A stretch of 64,000 nucleotides of DNA from Pseudomonadota bacterium (GTDB lineage Bacteria > Desulfobacterota > Desulfobacteria > Desulfobacterales > RPRI01), in the NCBI GenBank assembly GCA_043825875.1, contig JBDRRF010000084.1, positions 1 to 64,000 of the forward strand, written 5' to 3'. How positions within the stretch are numbered: the stretch's first letter is position 1; each line of letters starts with the position of its first letter. Made by a program: the position numbers. This document shows, piece by piece, positions 30,001 to 39,000 of this stretch.

Positions 30001-33000
30001 CTGGACATAGGCAAACCGGCCTATCACGCAATCATGAAGAGTGGTGAGATCAACCGTTGAAAAAGGGCCTAAAAAACATCCTTCAACCGGAGCGCCGTGA
30101 ATATTTGCATAAGAAGTTGAAGCTGTATTCTTTATGATAAATTCTTCCAGATCTTCAGGGTCATGAGAATAGTTATGGACAAGAGTTTTAATTAGAAAGC
30201 TGTCGCTGATGGATATTTTTTCATCATGATCAAGAGCTATATCAACACCCTCAAAATGAAAGATATCACCTTTTGCCTTTAATTCATCACCTCTTATATC
30301 GCTTTTATAAAGCACCGAGTTATCAATGGCACATTTTCCCAGAAAATAACTTCCGGCGAGATTTGAGTTGCTGAAATGAAATGAAAGAGGATGGTGGGAA
30401 GTTATGCCATAAAAAGCATAAAATTGAACCAGCTTTTTAATAGGCACTATTTCACGAATATAAGGCGTAACATCAAATGAGCCATGTTCTCTCAAATTGA
30501 TATTAACTCTGTAGCTTATCCTTTCTATCAGCTTTTCAAGTTGTTTCATAAAATCTTTCCTTATTATTAATTTTTAACAATTAAATAAGTACCTGCATAA
30601 TTTTCTGTCAGCTTTGATAAATTGTGCAAACTTATTGAAAAGTTTATTAAGAGTCAACATAAAACATTGCTCTGTCATTGTAAATTTATATTGAAAAAAG
30701 CGTTTTCTATTTGACTTAGTTTTGTATTACATGTATTGAGAACCCGCCGTGTGTATACGCTGAGGTTATTAAACAGAAGTTTTTGATCGGAATTTGCTGG
30801 TTAGACTTTTTACAAAATTGCAAAGAAAGAGAGTATTAGTTTAACTTAAAACAAATTAAGGCGTTATTTAGTATTAGAATAAGGTAATGGTATTTAAAAT
30901 TAATTAACGAGGTAGGTGTTTAATATGTTGACCCGAATTTTCCCTTTTCTTGTGTGGTTTAAAAAATATAGTCTTGAAGCCTTTAAGATTGATGCAATCT
31001 CCGGATTGACAGTGGCTCTTGTACTTATTCCCCAGTCAATGGCATATGCGCAATTGGCCGGGTTACCCCCATATTACGGTTTGTATGCTTCATTCATTCC
31101 TCCCATGATTGCGGCACTTTTTGGTTCAAGCCGACAACTTGCAACAGGTCCTGTGGCTGTTGTGTCTCTTATGACATCAGCATCACTGGAACCGCTGGCT
31201 ACTTTAGGAAGTGAAGGTTTTATAGCATATGCAATCCTTCTGGCTCTTATGGTAGGTATTTTTCAGTTTTCGCTTGGAGTGTTTAGGCTAGGACTTGTTG
31301 TTAATTTCTTATCTCATCCGGTTGTAAACGGTTTCACAAATGCTGCCGCGATTATTATTGCTTCTTCCCAGCTTTCAAAGATGTTTGGGGTAAGTGTGGA
31401 TAATGCGGCGCATCATTATGAAACTATAGCAAAAGTTATTAAATTTGCCATGAATTATACGCACTGGCCAACTTTGATAATGGGGGCATCAGCATTTATT
31501 GTTATGATTGTTTTAAAACGTTTTGCGCCCAAAGTTCCCAATGTGCTTGTAGCTGTTGGCATTGCAACGGTGGTATCATGGATGATCGGATTTAACTGTG
31601 ACAAAACAGCCGACATTACGTCTATTCAATCGGAAGAAACGATAGAATTAGTTGCAAATTATAATTTAGCCGTAGAAAACTCAAAAATTCTTGGTGAAGA
31701 GCGGACTAAAGCATTGACAGCTCTTGATGAAATTATAGAAAAAGGAGACCCCATAGCAGTTATTGATGCTCAAAGAGACGTTAGTATAATTGCAGCCAAG
31801 ATAGATACTTTAAAAAAGGAAAGCCGTGTATATAAAGAAGATATAAGAAATCTTTTGTTTGCAGGAGTTAAACAGTCCGAAGAAAAGATGTTTTTTTATC
31901 TTAAGGAACAGGTTCCTGAAGGAGTTGAAACAGACGGACGCACCTGGCGTATCAAAGTGAAAAACAATACTCTGGATACAACCAAGCTTACAATGATAGG
32001 CGGAGGCGCTATTGTCGGAACAATACCGGAAGGGATCCCTAAATTTTCCATACCTGCGATAAATTTTAAAGTTATGATGAAACTTTTCCCATTTGCAGCA
32101 ATTATCTCACTACTTGGTTTCATGGAAGCTATATCAATTGCAAAAGCGATGGCGGCAAAAACAGGACAAAGGCTTGATCCCAATCAGGAACTGATAGGGC
32201 AAGGACTTGCAAATATTTTGGGTTCATTTACAAGCGGGTATCCCGTTTCAGGATCATTTTCAAGATCGGCGGTTAACCTTTCGTCCGGTGCAGTGACGGG
32301 TTTATCCAGTGTTTTCACCAGCCTGACAGTATTAATAACGCTTATGTTTTTTACCCCGCTTCTTTACTATCTTCCTCAGTCAGTTCTTGCTGCGGTTATA
32401 ATGATGGCGGTTATAGGCCTTATAAATGTTTCCGGTTTCATTCACAGTATGAAGGCAAAATGGTATGACGGTACAATTTCAATTATATCTTTTATCTGCA
32501 CATTGGCCTTTGCTCCACATCTTGACAAGGGTATTATGGTTGGTGTTGTTTTGTCTTTATGTGTTTTTCTGTATAATAGCATGAGGCCGAAAGTGGCTTC
32601 ATTATCACGACATGATGATGAAGCTTTACGCGATTCAACGGTTTTTGGACTTAAACAATGCCATCATATAGATATGGTTCGTTTCGATGGGCCGCTCTTT
32701 TTTGCAAACGCAAGTTACCTTGAAGACCAAATCACAGAACGTCTTATGAATAAAAAGGAGCTTAGACATATTGTGATAGTTTGTAATGGTATAAATGATA
32801 TTGACGCTTCGGGTGAAGAAACTTTATCATTGGTAGTTGACAGGACAAGAAGCGGAGGAGTCGACATTTCATTTTCTGGTGTTAATGAAACTGTGATGAA
32901 AGTGTTTAAAAGGACGCACCTGATAGAAAAGATAGGTGAAGATCACATATATCCTACTATGGAAAAGGCTGTATGCTCGGTTTATGATGAAACACATACT

Positions 33001-36000: not shown

Positions 36001-39000
36001 GAAAGAGTGTTTGAACCGTTTTTTTCGACCAAAACTAAACAGGGAGGAACGGGGCTTGGTCTTTCCATAACTTACGGGCTTGTACAGGAATTGGGCGGAA
36101 GTATAGGCGTTCAGAGTGAAGAGGGTAAAGGAACAAGTTTTGTTGTAACCCTTCCGCTTAAGATGGAGAAGAAGGAGGGAAAAGACAGTGAAAATCTTGC
36201 TAGTAGACGATGAGAAAGAGCTGGTATCAACTCTTGCTGAACGCCTCACTTTAAGGGATATTGAGGCGGATTGGGTTACCAGTGGAGATGCCGCTATAAA
36301 AAAATGTGAAACCAAAACATATGATATAGCTGTTCTTGATATCAAGATGCCTAAAATTGGTGGAATTGAACTTAAGAAAAAACTGGATTCAAAGAATCCC
36401 GGTTTGAAATATATTTTTATAACAGGCCACGGATCTGAAGATGATTATATGACAGCATGTGGCGAAACAGGGGCCGAATATTATCTTGTAAAACCAGTTA
36501 ATATTGATGATCTTATAGTAAAAATGAACGATGTTATGCTAAAAAAGGCGTAGGTGTAATATTGGTATCAAAAATGGGTATAAATGGTGAAAATGCCCTT
36601 AAATTTTTTGGGAATATGACGGCATCGATTTCTCATGAAGTAAAAAACGTGCTTGCGATTATCAATGAAAATGCCGGTCTTCTAGGGGATCTTTGTATAA
36701 TGGCTGAAAAGGGGCTTCCTATTGATCCGGGCCGCATTAAAGCCGCTGCGGAAAAAGTAATAAAGCAGGTTCAACGTGGCGATATAATTATAAATAGGCT
36801 TAACAAATTCGCCCACAGTGTTGATGAGCCGGATTGCGATTATAATGTTAACGATCTGCTTGTTTTTGTTTCGGAACTTTCCGAAAGAATTGCTTTGATG
36901 AGCGGGATTAAACTTGAAACCAATAGAACTACAGACCCTGTTATTATAAATACCAATCCCTTTTTATTTGAAACTCTTATATGGTTTTTTCTTGATTATG
37001 CCATGAATGTCGTTGTTGGAAAAGAAAAAACCATTTGTATTACAGCTGAAAAAAATTACGATAATGTTGTTATAACTTTTTCCAAATTAAAAGGACTTTC
37101 CGGAATTCAAGCAGATGAATTTCCAGGAGAGCGTGAAAAATCCCTTCTTACCGCCCTGAATGGAATAACAGCAATTGATGCTGATTCAGAAAAGATAATG
37201 ATAAAATTATAACCCCTTGTTTCAACCCCATGTCAGCCGTTTTCTAAATCATATTTTTTGGTCTAAATACAGATTTCTTATAAAATCATAAAAACTACAG
37301 GCCTCCCGGTTAAAAAAGGAGACCTGTATTGATATTGAACAATTTAAAATATTAATTGGATGTGACGGGTTAGTTAGTGTTCAAGCCTTAAGCCCCAACC
37401 TTCAAACATAAACATGATACCAAAGCCATACCACATTGTGTAAATAACATAAAATACGAGGGAGAAAACGACCATACCAGCTTTTTCTGAAATCTTTTGC
37501 GGAACTATTTTATAGTAATTATAAGAGCATTCAACTCCCTTTTTTGTTATGGAAGAAACAAGTTTCATTTCCTTGAATTTTTTCTGTTTGCCAAGCTCTT
37601 CCTGCATCAGCTTTAAAGCTGAATGCCAGTTAAACATTATCTTTCTTTCATTATAGGCGTATTTTTCAGTAAGCATTTCTCCTTTGTTGTTAAACATATT
37701 ATCAGCATCTTCAAGACAGTTTCCCAAAATCTTATTCAAATTACCATTGATGCTTAATTGAGTTCCTGACACATTTGCTTCAGCGCCTCCTTTTATAAAA
37801 AGAAGGGCTGTTTCCTCTGCCTGCTTAGGTTCTTTCATTTCCAAAATCACGGAAATCGAATCATTATTGTATGTTTCGAGTTCACTTTTAAGTTTGGGTA
37901 TGTAGTAGGCCGAGCCTTTTGATATGGTATTATATAGTGAATCAAGGTAATTTAAAGCATTTTTACCTTCGAATATGGGGCAAAACATAATTGCCAGAAC
38001 AACAAAAAAGGCAACCAGCAACCCAACACCGCCGTAAAACTCTTTTTTATCTGCTATCATTTTATAAAGCCTCCTCTCCTTTGAGCTTTTTAATATTTTT
38101 GAAGAAGGTGCTTATAACCCATACAGCAAAAAAGCCGATTACAATGAAAAATAAAACATTTCCGATCATATCGAGTATTTTGCAGGTATCTTTTGACAGG
38201 GTAATAAGCTTTATATCCGCAAGTTTACCGGGAAGAGCAAAAAAACGGTTGCTAAACCCAGCCAGCACAGCCATTGCATAAAAACCTCTTATTGTTATAC
38301 CTTTTACAACTTTGGTTGCCATGGCTCCAACCTGTATTCCTAAAAGAGAGCCGAGCAGCATTCCCATTGCAAGAGTGTAGAAAATAAACCCGTAAATTGC
38401 ATACTGGCTTATTGCGGCATATCCTGCTGTAAAAATAATCTGGAAGACATCAGTTCCAACTGTTGTAAGAGAAGATACCCCAAGAACATATACGAAGACC
38501 GGAAAAGTTAAAAAACCGCCACCAACACCCATGATAGCTGCACAAAAACCTACAAGAGCTCCGCTTAATACAAGAAAAAGAGCTGATATTTTGCGCCCTC
38601 CGGGGACAAGACCTTCATCGAAAGTAATCATCGGAGGAATATTATATGACTGAATTTTCTGTGGAAGATTTCCAAGCTCCATTCCTTCGGAATCTCCTCC
38701 ACCATGGGCATCTCCTCCGGCACTTGGCGATTTTCTTGCCTGGAGAAAATCATAAAGAGAATATACCCCAAGTATACCGAGCATAAGAACATATATTATT
38801 GTGATAAAAGCGTCACTCAATATAGGATTTATATCATATATGACACGGTTTATCACACCTCCTGTTGTTGCCCCGGCAACGGCGCCTATTATAAATATCA
38901 GACCCAGAGCCACTGAAATATTGCCAAGTTTTCTGTGAATAACCGATCCCATAATTGCTTTGGCAAAGATATGAAAAAGGTCGGTTCCTACAGCAAGAAT

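Follow-up and report, generated by a model that had tools for sequence, protein, structure and literature searches.

The window analyzed here, a stretch of 64,000 nucleotides from a member of the order Desulfobacterales (contig JBDRRF010000084.1, here C84), carries a module of five genes that is conserved in this order. It comprises a SulP transporter, a protein that joins cytidylate kinase-like, BON-like, and receiver domains, a Cache-type histidine kinase, a single-domain receiver, and a kinase-derived protein (Table 1). For the "cytidylate kinase-like" proteins of PF13189 (Cytidylate_kin2), we take CKL as the short name. The CKL-receiver gene starts 21 nt after the SulP gene on the same strand, and the 121-aa receiver gene shares its first 26 nt with the end of the kinase gene. 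No DNA-binding domain was found by Pfam in any regulator of the module. Reanalysis of open reading frames and Pfam matches recovered the genes and domains that an earlier note had described at 30925..36553; the BON-like domain, the fifth gene, and the published outline of the cluster are additions to that description.

Table 1. Genes of the module, with positions counted from the first nucleotide of the window
Gene product	Position	Strand	Domains or motifs
SulP/SLC26 anion transporter	30925..33051	+	Sulfate_transp + STAS
Three-domain response regulator, 409 aa (CKL-receiver)	33073..34302	+	Cytidylate_kin2 + Response_reg
Membrane sensor histidine kinase, Cache-like periplasmic part	34456..36213	+	HATPase_c, HisKA
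Single-domain receiver, 121 aa	36188..36553	+	Response_reg alone
Kinase-derived relay candidate, 216 aa	36562..37212	+	H-box His kept, ATP-binding motifs lost

The open reading frame of the transporter spans 30916-33051, with ATG 30925 as the probable start behind an AGGTAGG ribosome site, so that the protein is 708-711 aa long. It has the SulP/SLC26 family's membrane domain and C-terminal STAS domain, with Sulfate_transp (PF00916; E 2.1e-104, 349.8 bits) matching in two parts (23-231 and from about 363 onward), STAS (PF01740; E 9.8e-17, 61.1 bits) covering 585-685, and the sulP model TIGR00815 scoring 454 bits against a cutoff of 380. Alignment of 27 orthologues places an insert of ~150 residues between the two Sulfate_transp halves and reveals a conserved STAS tail, H..CPL.TVC. 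PF00916 matches only two genes in the whole genome, on C84 and on contig C66, and both products contain a PxYGLY motif (PPYYGLY in the window, PPEYGLY on C66). A 710-aa SulP group with an insertion is described in passages of PMC5840216, and the length and insertion of the window SulP fit its group Ci, while the NCBIfam models for BicA and DauA score far below their cutoffs. The window SulP is a probable sulfate transporter, with sulfate as its putative substrate.

The neighboring 409-aa protein is modeled by AlphaFold2 (pLDDT 86.6) as a kinase-like domain lacking the Walker lysine (residues 1-185), a BON-like alpha-beta-beta-alpha-beta domain (193-263), a disordered linker (267-280), and a receiver (283-408). 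Pfam detects two families only, Cytidylate_kin2 at residues 3-169 (63.3 bits, gathering cutoff 28) and Response_reg at 284-392 (profile positions 1-109 of 111, E 3.2e-25, 88.9 bits), which confirms the previously reported fusion to a CheY-like receiver. The receiver fold, which matches solved receivers with a Foldseek E of 4e-10, has the acidic pocket, phospho-acceptor Asp, Thr/Ser, and Lys of response regulators, and it looks functional because D288, D289, D332, T360, and K382 are invariant among 27 orthologues. Neither Trans_reg_C nor another DNA-binding family was found in the protein by Pfam at E up to 0.01. Assignment as a regulator of the OmpR/WalR/CpxR type was rejected, as there is no winged-helix domain and the receiver itself is C-terminal; NCBIfam matches to CpxR, PhoB, and similar models cover the receiver part only and lie far below their cutoffs.

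The BON-like part consists of H193-214, E220-224, E227-232, H239-251, and E258-263, an order that fits BON domains in the models of both the 409-aa protein and its 268-aa paralogue on C66. Pfam BON (PF04972) was not found there at E up to 10, and the first Atlas feature match was to a cluster with BON on 36% of its members, at a score of only 0.76. According to a preprint on DolP, the combination of BON with PF13189 is a major BON architecture, and parts of PMC7806268 describe phospholipid binding by the BON domains of DolP.

The kinase-like domain has the NMP-kinase fold (Z 15-19 in structure comparison), and residues 1-192 of the modeled 268-aa paralogue match the CMP kinases 7l4a and 2h92 with Z of 15.2 and 15.1, respectively, and a Foldseek E of 1e-7 to 1e-6. 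The Walker A motif GxxxxGK[ST] with its catalytic lysine is absent. The N-terminal loops read ITIFSGTFCEEES in the C84 protein and ISRGSYSRGKE in the C66 protein; in the receiver-fused form the lysine-free MSVITIFSGTFC is invariant among orthologues, FSGTFC being invariant in a first set of 20, and mostly acidic residues follow the loop. Across the genome, PF13189 matches the C66 and C84 proteins, the true Cmk on contig C54, and two 23-residue fragments at contig ends. This Cmk shares the fold with CKL proteins (Z about 15) but differs in the Walker lysine: in an hhalign profile alignment, the nearly invariant Gly14 of the PF13189 family falls on that lysine, and the next residue is variable (K/R/W/S/N/T/E/Q in 42 relatives). 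Evidence against CMP kinase identity of the CKL proteins is given by the missing lysine, by the (d)CMP kinase model TIGR02173, which scores 25.4 bits on the 268-aa form against a cutoff of 102.1, and by the canonical Cmk (GPAGAGKTT) encoded on C54. No cmk model occurs among the 25 best of 91 NCBIfam families for the 409-aa form. The view of the earlier note that these are unlikely to be CMP kinases is thus supported, and the housekeeping Cmk is, as it stated, a different protein.

The best structural matches of the kinase-like domain (residues 1-188) are the PF13189 members 3hdt and 3fdi, with Z of 19.4 and 17.5 and a Foldseek E of about 1e-9. Unlike the 409-aa protein, both are single-domain Firmicutes proteins that lack a BON-like domain, a receiver, and an assigned function, and solved members of the family carry the titles "uncharacterized protein" and "putative kinase," with no characterized enzyme among them. 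3fdi shares the lysine-less glycine-rich loop. The lysine-less loops that had been noted before as loss or atypicality of the P-loop are real, but they are a trait of PF13189 at large rather than a special decay of these two genes, as the loop of 3fdi, GREFGSGGH, illustrates. Across both CKL subfamilies, R117, D140, W146, and D155-P156-W157 are fully or almost fully conserved, and the best conserved part of the domain is the stretch 54-69 (F..K.SVFN.FTHEKE) in the region of the NMP-binding lobe. Within the receiver-fused form (27 orthologues), C12 is near-invariant, and C109, H66, H104, and R117 are invariant; the 268-aa paralogue lacks these cysteines and histidines. As a kinase this domain is disabled, yet the 409-aa protein is 55-85% identical across 26 aligned orthologues and is therefore under selection.

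The remaining genes would supply components of a phosphorelay. The histidine kinase has HATPase_c (E 3e-28) and HisKA (E 3.5e-07) matches in Pfam, and its dCache_1 match (38.8 bits, E 1e-09) lies below the Pfam cutoff of 45; its orthologues come after the CKL-receiver in two related loci (L029 and L032). The 121-aa protein matches Response_reg (E 4.2e-25) and no other Pfam domain. The 216-aa protein has a HisKA match below the cutoff (E 0.0024), a weak NCBIfam match to AtoS-type kinases, and no HATPase_c match in Pfam, and it is paralogous to the kinase of the cluster, with which it has 21-22% identity and the H-box in common. In an alignment with five orthologues and two cognate kinases, its His25 is invariant, both the Asn of the N-box and the Asp of G1 are missing, and a 12-residue gap falls at GGTGLGLSITY, so that the G2 box and ATP lid are deleted in 6/6 orthologues relative to the 2 cognate kinases. 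With its histidine kept and its ATP-binding motifs lost, it has the hallmarks of a kinase-derived histidine phosphotransferase and is a candidate phosphorelay protein. Kinase-derived histidine phosphotransferases are exemplified by Spo0B and ChpT, which have a similar make-up of a dimerization and His-phosphotransfer hairpin followed by a kinase-like domain without ATP lid. The 216-aa protein, which has no detectable sequence relation to either, resembles them also in being encoded with several bare receivers.

When gene order is placed into the context of the order, the link between transporter and CKL-receiver stands out. Among 151 sampled genomes of Desulfobacterales, 84 have the long SulP type, 86 the CKL-receiver, and 82 both, and the two genes are adjacent on one strand in 73, of which 67 have them within 200 nt (median gap 35 nt). 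The CKL-receiver is directly downstream on the same strand in 29 of the best 30 long-SulP loci (30 genomes), the 30th being at a contig end. This arrangement is missing in five genomes of the sample, whose long SulP is more divergent (55-62% identical); the CKL-receiver is on another contig in four of them and, in the fifth, ~4.5 kb upstream on the same contig but the opposite strand. With 73 adjacent of the 82 genomes that have both, this is the tightest pair of the cluster, whose tail varies among loci. In related loci, which lie next to different anion carriers (CLC, APC, TauE, and DASS), the cassette is longer by one more receiver and a 268-aa CKL that stands alone.

The second pair of the genome behaves differently. 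As reported earlier, both SulP/STAS genes of the genome adjoin a PF13189 protein. The C66 CKL (268 aa; 142.1 bits for PF13189 against a cutoff of 28) ends 3 nt before its SulP and, in agreement with the earlier note, shares 28% identity with the C84 CKL protein over 260 aa (E 3e-31). The C66-type pair is narrow: of the 30 best SulP66-like loci, just 3 have a CKL gene beside SulP. It is the C84-type pair that makes the pairing frequent in the order, and the view that CKL proteins are regulatory partners is supported, through strong linkage, only where CKL is fused to a receiver. As a family, stand-alone CKL proteins show no general tie to SulP, which lies within 6 kb in 12/80 loci. A membrane transporter is the immediate neighbor in 22/72 stand-alone loci by Pfam, or 24/72 when two more SulP genes that only tblastn revealed are included, both as raw counts; other neighbors are varied: 5 loci have dienelactone hydrolase, 5 have kinases, and many have no clear partner. 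None of the 13 longer relatives of the 268-aa form has SulP, STAS, or a transporter of any kind as its fusion partner; the partners are Usp, a PEP-dikinase-like enzyme, ankyrin repeats, or another CKL. The SulP-linked rows (10; support 88) group together in a quick tree of 80 stand-alone CKL proteins, as do the TauE-linked rows, a clade of six with five TauE-labeled members (support 99).

A cluster outline of this kind is already published. Parts of PMC11887813 (Sci Adv 2025) describe a SulP cluster with two-component systems and a TetR repressor as widespread in Desulfobacteraceae, and report the transporter as abundant in proteomes and constitutively formed. That cluster shares with the module the transporter type, the Cache-type sensor kinase, and the accompanying regulators, and the two appear to be the same because 12/27 orthologous loci carry a TetR gene directly upstream of SulP; none was found upstream in this window, in a locus of the same genus (L091), or in 15/27 loci. 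As many clusters carry a TetR repressor, transcription is therefore regulated as well. In the same parts of PMC11887813, the regulators are named "WalR type" and drawn acting on promoters, whereas those of the module have in one case a kinase-like and BON-like output and in the other a bare receiver, without a DNA-binding domain. This output is a departure from the published model. The word "cytidylate" is absent from the main text and one supplementary file of PMC11887813; its Figures S21-S24, which lie outside these, may show the gene.

These observations suggest that the proposed phosphorelay switches the transporter itself rather than genes. We infer the order of phosphotransfer, its target, and its effect on transport as follows. 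The Cache-type membrane kinase would sense an extracellular signal, possibly sulfate as published work suggests, and phosphorylate the 121-aa receiver; the phosphate would then pass, probably through the 216-aa protein with its phospho-histidine and no ATP binding, to the receiver of the 409-aa protein. The output of the latter, a disabled NMP-kinase-like domain with a BON-like domain, would act on the adjoining SulP by contact on the cytoplasmic side or at the membrane and so switch uptake on or off. Judged from linkage, it is on balance probable that the terminal response regulator of this relay acts on the transporter after translation.

An unlikely alternative, in line with the published model, has the CKL-receiver control expression indirectly, by binding or releasing TetR, a sigma factor, or RNA, and thus set the amount of transporter and not its activity. 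Single-domain regulators without a DNA-binding domain can indeed act through partner proteins, and TetR lies upstream of SulP in the 12 loci mentioned. Passages of PMC11887813 propose kinase-dependent formation of transporters and describe a TetR operator, but they also report constitutive formation of SulP; moreover, TetR is missing in 15/27 loci, whereas the CKL-receiver is kept in 29/29 judgeable loci, and Pfam found DNA-binding domains in none of the module's regulators. It is quite unlikely, too, that the target is something other than the transporter, such as lipids reached through the BON-like domain, feedback on the kinase, or another sulfur enzyme, with SulP merely co-operonic. The phospholipid binding of DolP, the listing of BON with PF13189 as a major architecture, and the many unrelated neighbors of stand-alone CKL relatives would fit such a target, but SulP and the CKL-receiver mostly remain together while TetR and the cassette tail vary.

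Two further readings concern the kinase-like domain. Usp and CBS domains, to which CKL relatives are fused, bind adenine nucleotides, and the domain could itself sense a small molecule, be it a nucleotide (as the earlier note proposed), APS, or an anion, and join the energy or sulfur state of the cell to the phosphorelay, which would be compatible with action on the transporter. The kept NMP-kinase fold (Z 15 to CMP kinases), the (near-)invariant residues, and the conserved stretch 54-69 agree with this, as does speculation on APS sensing by CBS proteins in parts of PMC11887813. We nevertheless regard it as improbable, as the phosphate-binding lysine is absent, the acidic residues after the loop are unfavorable for an anionic ligand, and most of the arginines that bind phosphate in CMP kinases are without a conserved counterpart in the CKL alignments. 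That the domain is an active phosphotransferase or hydrolase with an unusual site, switched by the receiver, is highly improbable: its fold is that of small-molecule kinases, and C12, C109, H66, and H104 could make a catalytic or metal site, but these residues are not kept in the 268-aa paralogue, the Walker lysine is missing, and the solved PF13189 members include no characterized enzyme.

Action of the CKL-receiver on the transporter itself would have parallels. GlnK with AmtB and SbtB with SbtA are small soluble regulators encoded beside the carrier that they gate, and they may share with this module the principle that a neighbor-encoded cytoplasmic protein binds and switches a transporter upon a signal. 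Their fold is PII, unrelated to the NMP-kinase-like fold of CKL, and they read ligands or uridylylation, whereas the CKL-receiver would read a phosphorelay. As a tentative speculation, the CKL-BON-receiver protein may be a pseudokinase subunit that is switched by phosphorylation, docks on SulP, and thereby gates the uptake of sulfate on a time scale of seconds.

Dissimilatory sulfate reduction, a major route by which carbon is oxidized in marine sediments, begins with sulfate uptake, and sulfate reducers have long been observed to switch between low- and high-accumulation uptake. How uptake is adjusted to the external sulfate level is still an open question in parts of PMC5840216 and PMC11887813. 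The only published model of the cluster assumes DNA-binding regulators, and Pfam finds none in the module, so that the question becomes whether a phosphorylated pseudokinase-BON protein binds and gates SulP. If so, this would be a two-component phosphorelay with the activity of a secondary carrier, not transcription, as its output, and a new output domain for response regulators. PF13189, whose two crystal structures are unexplained, would gain its first function, and stand-alone CKL-BON proteins would serve TauE, CLC, and further anion carriers as that same adaptor. Part of the changeover between low- and high-accumulation uptake in sulfate reducers would then be post-translational.

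The SulP transporter gene of the window opens a five-gene module on one strand, in which it is followed by a 409-aa protein that joins a cytidylate kinase-like domain (PF13189, Cytidylate_kin2; CKL) to a BON-like domain and a receiver (CKL-receiver), by a Cache-type histidine kinase, by a 121-aa receiver and by a 216-aa kinase-derived protein. The genes are closely packed, with 21 nt between the SulP stop and the CKL-receiver gene, 8 nt between the genes for the 121-aa receiver and the 216-aa protein, and a 26-nt overlap between the end of the kinase gene and the start of that of the 121-aa receiver. 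Pfam matches of the window genes bear out the earlier note in its description of a CKL fused to a receiver and followed by a histidine kinase and a single-domain receiver; its interval for the module, 30925-36553, encloses these four genes and stops short of the fifth, that of the 216-aa protein.

Features of the window in and around the SulP module
Feature	Position	Strand	Remarks
Type I restriction enzyme R-subunit-like protein (592 aa) and YhcG-type PDDEXK nuclease (258 aa)	21977-25886		Upstream; unrelated to SulP module
474-aa protein	29125-30549	-	Hexapep_loop E 6.4e-16; faint match to gamma-carbonic-anhydrase-like part of CcmM; divergent from SulP
SulP/STAS transporter	ORF 30916-33051; likely start ATG 30925	+	AGGTAGG ribosome site; Sulfate_transp E 2.1e-104, in two stretches; STAS
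CKL-receiver, 409 aa	33073-34302	+	Cytidylate_kin2 residues 3-169, 63.3 bits (cut-off 28); Response_reg 284-392, E 3.2e-25
Membrane histidine kinase	34456-36213	+	HATPase_c, HisKA; dCache_1 38.8 bits, below Pfam cut-off 45
121-aa receiver	36188-36553	+	Response_reg as sole Pfam domain
216-aa protein	36562-37212	+	Sub-threshold HisKA, E 0.0024
228-aa membrane protein	37374-38060	-	No Pfam family; tightly behind TauE; converges on SulP module
TauE/TSUP	38062-39351	-	Converges on SulP module
Sigma-54-like -24/-12 element TGGTATGCATTTTGCT	39515-39530	-	About 165 nt upstream of TauE start
PPDK_N and PEP-utilizers protein, 866 aa	40113-42713		Divergent from TauE gene
Cache-type histidine kinase	43861-45552	-
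Cache-type histidine kinase	46466-48127	+

Sigma-54 motifs were absent upstream of the SulP and kinase genes; the whole window holds 20 against 31 expected, which is below chance, and the site upstream of TauE proves nothing by itself. A terminator scan returned 6 sites against 5.5 expected, none of them in an intergenic gap. Upstream of SulP, the search for inverted repeats found two short AT-rich palindromes only and nothing to match a published idea of a 16-bp operator, which is consistent with the absence of a TetR gene here.

The association of the first two genes is conserved well beyond this genome. Within a sample of 151 Desulfobacterales genomes, the window SulP has matches at E up to 1e-20 in 113 and full-length matches, at 54-80% identity, in about 80, and in 29 of the 30 best SulP loci the gene immediately downstream, on the strand of SulP, is a CKL-receiver, the thirtieth reaching a contig end about 160 nt past the SulP gene. 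The same genomes were searched with residues 1-283 of the 409-aa protein and the coordinates were compared: among the matches listed, 84 genomes have the long SulP type, 86 have a CKL-receiver (E up to 1e-50) and 82 have both, and the two genes are adjacent on one strand in 73 genomes, in 67 of them within 200 nt, with a median gap of 35 nt; as the sampled genomes are related to one another, these counts measure conservation and are not independent trials. Beyond the matches listed in the two tables, 58 and 65 more lie at the weak end. A partner is missing for 15 of the 90 listed SulP rows, ten of which are fragments or contig ends and five divergent copies (55-62% identity) not immediately followed on their own strand by a CKL-receiver-like gene; four of their genomes carry such a gene on another contig, and in the fifth it is found on the same contig but on the other strand, about 4.5 kb upstream.

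Searches of all 118 contigs confirmed that both SulP genes of the genome adjoin a PF13189 gene, as had been claimed: PF00916 occurs twice, on C84 (the contig of the window) and C66, and PF13189 occurs on both of these and on C54, where it is found in an ordinary cytidylate kinase (Cmk, loop GPAGAGKTT) distinct from both CKLs, again in line with the earlier account. The first 23 positions of PF13189 are also matched at the extreme contig ends C54:2-70 and C55:2-70, with identical coordinates and score, and these fragments may stem from a single gene, repeated or split where the assembly breaks. On C66 a stand-alone CKL protein of 268 aa ends 3 nt before the gene of a 591-aa SulP (SulP66). The reported identity between the 409-aa and 268-aa proteins, 28% over 260 residues (E 3e-31), was reproduced, and the likeness extends past the Pfam domain into a second common domain. 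At two loci of the sample (G015:C77 and G098:C94), a 268-aa-type CKL stands directly upstream of the long SulP and a CKL-receiver after it, so that SulP is flanked by both forms.

The C66 type of pair behaves differently from that of the window. Relatives of the 268-aa protein number at least 597 in the genome collection (found with an alignment of 10 closer rows); SulP lies within 6 kb in 12 of the best 80, which were examined with 6-kb flanks, and directly downstream in 10, the closest relatives of the C66 protein. Conversely, a CKL gene stands beside SulP66-like genes in 3 of the 30 best loci of the order and in none of the 12 evaluable loci at 55-64% identity, a thirteenth having only about 410 nt upstream. 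Pfam annotation of the -1 and +1 genes at 72 stand-alone CKL loci (136 proteins) gave SulP at 7 loci (2 more by tblastn only), TauE at 7, CLC with CBS at 3, MFS at 2, and APC permease, cation-efflux, Nramp-Usp, MatE, ArsP and ABC-2 permease genes at 1 each, besides single receivers at 7, histidine kinases, dienelactone hydrolases and second CKL genes at 5 each, and Usp at 4. A membrane transporter as immediate neighbour at 22 of the 72 loci, or 24 with the two tblastn-only SulP genes, is not striking in itself. The transporter signal is found in clades rather than in this overall count: a maximum-likelihood tree of the 80 proteins, from a quick search, places the ten that have SulP directly downstream in a single group (support 88), a clade of six (support 99) holds five rows linked to TauE, and rows that follow a receiver also cluster.

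Thirteen longer CKL relatives comprise four fusions to Usp, one each to a PEP-dikinase-like enzyme, ankyrin repeats and the unnamed family PF27327, and six proteins of about double length with PF13189 alone; no fusion to SulP, STAS or a transporter occurs among the 13, which is weak evidence. The dikinase-like fusion has 1165 aa, and a further relative (at L079) adjoins such an enzyme. To regard the stand-alone family as a whole as a transporter partner was rejected as too broad (12/80; 22-24/72; 3/30). The view that SulP-CKL pairing is typical of the order consequently holds for the receiver-fused pair (73 genomes with adjacency, 82 with both genes) and fails for the C66 pair; only the former is a general feature of the order.

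Modeled by AlphaFold2 from a 64-row alignment (mean pLDDT 86.6), the 409-aa protein falls into three domains, a kinase-like domain (1-185), a helix followed by a beta-beta-alpha-beta unit (193-263) and, after a disordered linker (267-280), the receiver (283-408); a structure search with this model returned receiver domains only. The 268-aa paralogue has the first two of these domains, set in a fixed position to each other in its model (pLDDT 93.6, pTM 0.89). In a wide structure search covering residues 1-189, its first domain is closest to the PF13189 crystal structures 3hdt (Z 19.4) and 3fdi (Z 17.5), followed by CMP kinases (Z about 15) and shikimate, dephospho-CoA and APS kinases (Z 10-12), and Foldseek agrees. 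Gly14, nearly invariant in the family, aligns on the Walker lysine of the genome's own Cmk in a profile alignment, and the next residue is K, R, W, S, N, T, E or Q among 42 relatives, so the lysine in the C66 loop ISRGSYSRGKE is not a conserved feature. Receiver-fused CKLs have the invariant loop MSVITIFSGTFC, followed by mostly acidic residues. Since the solved member 3fdi, with GREFGSGGH at the corresponding loop, likewise has no lysine there, the trait is one of PF13189 overall; the earlier note was right that the P-loop is lost in one CKL and atypical in the other, and the peculiarity is that of the whole family rather than of these two proteins. Both CKL subfamilies share G92, L106, R117, A132, D140, W146, D158, Y162 and D163; in the receiver-fused form C12, H66, H104 and C109 are invariant or nearly so as well, and residues 54-69 are very highly conserved. 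The phospho-acceptor set of the CKL-receiver is complete (D288, D289, D332, T360, K382).

We name the second CKL domain BON-like, as the order of its secondary-structure elements in the models is that of a BON domain. Pfam, run on the middle and C-terminal parts with E values up to 10 allowed, found no BON, and in an Atlas feature search the first match was a BON-bearing cluster, at a weak score of 0.76. The combination of BON with PF13189 is among the eight major BON architectures of the DolP preprint.

The transporter itself carries an insert (window 31600-32070, residues about 232-385) that splits Sulfate_transp with variable, charged, helix-forming sequence, in which an alignment of 27 orthologues reveals the conserved islands DGRTWRIKVGN and GGGAVVG.IP.G.P. 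The usual topology of the SulP fold is 7+7, and given this arrangement the insert would face the periplasm, on the same side as the Cache domain of the kinase. At the C-terminus (window 32650-33048), C582, H618, H694 and the tail CPL.TVC are conserved in the 27 orthologues, C702 being invariant and C708 nearly so. Conserved Cys and His residues of the CKL-receiver (window 33073-33400) are C12, H66, H104 and C109, all absent from the 268-aa paralogue, and it is conceivable from these residues that the two proteins have a metal or redox site, perhaps a shared one.

The window has the short form of the signalling cassette, which ends after the 216-aa protein. At L029 and L032, two loci of the collection, the order is SulP (L029 only), CKL-receiver, kinase, receiver, 216-aa protein, second receiver and stand-alone CKL, with L032 beginning within a partial CKL-receiver match of about 40% identity; convergent genes for Usp (L029 only), CitMHS, a DASS carrier, a CBS protein and another receiver come next. 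Four more loci (L038, L045, L060, L080) read receiver, kinase, receiver, 216-aa protein, receiver and stand-alone CKL. After this CKL comes CLC in L060 and an APC permease in L045, and these two loci, the ones checked for it, also have a TauE gene upstream in divergent orientation. The 216-aa family and its cognate kinases have an H-box in common (SISHE.KN.LAII.E.AGL against GVAHEINNPLA.INEK.GL) with an invariant His. To judge by its sequence, the 216-aa protein cannot bind ATP in the manner of a kinase, because the N-box Asn and the G1 Asp are lost and a 12-residue gap lies opposite the kinase GGTGLGLSITY. A phmmer search with it found no solved structure at an E value under 0.3. The simplest reading would be a His-Asp-His-Asp phosphorelay through the module with the 216-aa protein as the relay, though it may alternatively be a phosphatase. 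Spo0F-Spo0B-Spo0A and CckA-ChpT-CtrA are relays of this kind.

When placed beside published work, the outline of the cluster is already in print. PMC11887813 reports that a SulP cluster is widespread among Desulfobacteraceae and contains two-component systems, kinases of the Cache type and a TetR repressor; it names Desulfovibrio salexigens among the organisms that have the cluster. In the model proposed there, the formation of the transporters is governed by the sensing of sulfate outside the cell. A TetR gene stands directly upstream of SulP on the same strand in 12 of 27 orthologous loci, so the cluster appears to be the same, whereas the window and one same-genus locus have the divergent 474-aa hexapeptide-repeat gene at that place. 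The hexapeptide gene occupies the TetR position of other genomes in L091 (divergent) and in L096 and L112 (same strand). The published regulators are termed 'WalR type', whereas those of the window have no DNA-binding domain, and the word 'cytidylate' is absent from the main text of that paper. PMC5840216, which sorts the SulP proteins of sulfate reducers, assigns proteins of about 710 residues, a length attributed to an insertion, to a group within the presumed sulfate-carrier clade; it also mentions an insertion of some 90 residues with an extra membrane helix, and the terms 'response regulator', 'histidine kinase', 'cytidylate' and 'gene neighborhood' do not occur in it. The clade placement and the PxYGLY motif point to sulfate as the substrate. 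Literature searches found no paper joining 'cytidylate kinase-like' with SulP or with 'response regulator', and none on a receiver with a cytidylate kinase output domain or on Cytidylate_kin2; the only papers found to mention PF13189 were the one on DolP and its preprint. What looks new here is that the regulators are without a DNA-binding domain, that the larger one combines a disabled kinase-like with a BON-like domain, and that a fifth gene is relay-like.

The balance of probability slightly favors a CKL-receiver that is the terminal response regulator and would act on the neighboring transporter after translation, the evidence for which is gene order; the earlier note's caution that the SulP-CKL evidence is linkage was right and applies equally here. 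This reading is suggested by the tight, order-wide pairing, the lack of a DNA-binding output in the regulators, the intact receiver of the CKL-receiver, the high conservation of a domain unable to be a normal kinase, the presence of a BON-like, presumably membrane-directed domain and the finding of the same adaptor next to further anion carriers. Evidence to the contrary comes from the stand-alone CKLs, which often lie away from transporters, the absence of a CKL partner from most SulP66-like genes (3 of the 30 best loci have one) and the absence of transporter fusions among the longer relatives. A predicted complex of the STAS part (553-711) with the CKL and BON part (1-266), from 27 rows each, gave an ipSAE of 0.00 in both runs, which counts neither for nor against the reading.

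The TetR gene shows that many clusters are certainly under transcriptional control, and this too tells against an effect on the transporter itself; that the CKL-receiver would serve such control indirectly is nonetheless fairly unlikely, the regulators of the module having no DNA-binding output. A target other than the transporter, which the dispersed stand-alone family could suggest and the adjacency of the receiver-fused pair does not, is unlikely. The conserved kinase-like domain could also be a ligand sensor, a quite unlikely proposal when taken by itself, although it can coexist with post-translational action on SulP. An odd active enzyme, with a fold near that of CMP kinases on one side and a lysine-less loop on the other, is very improbable.

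Taken together, the CKL-receiver is a response regulator whose output domain has no earlier description, and SulP is a carrier with a candidate soluble regulator encoded beside it.
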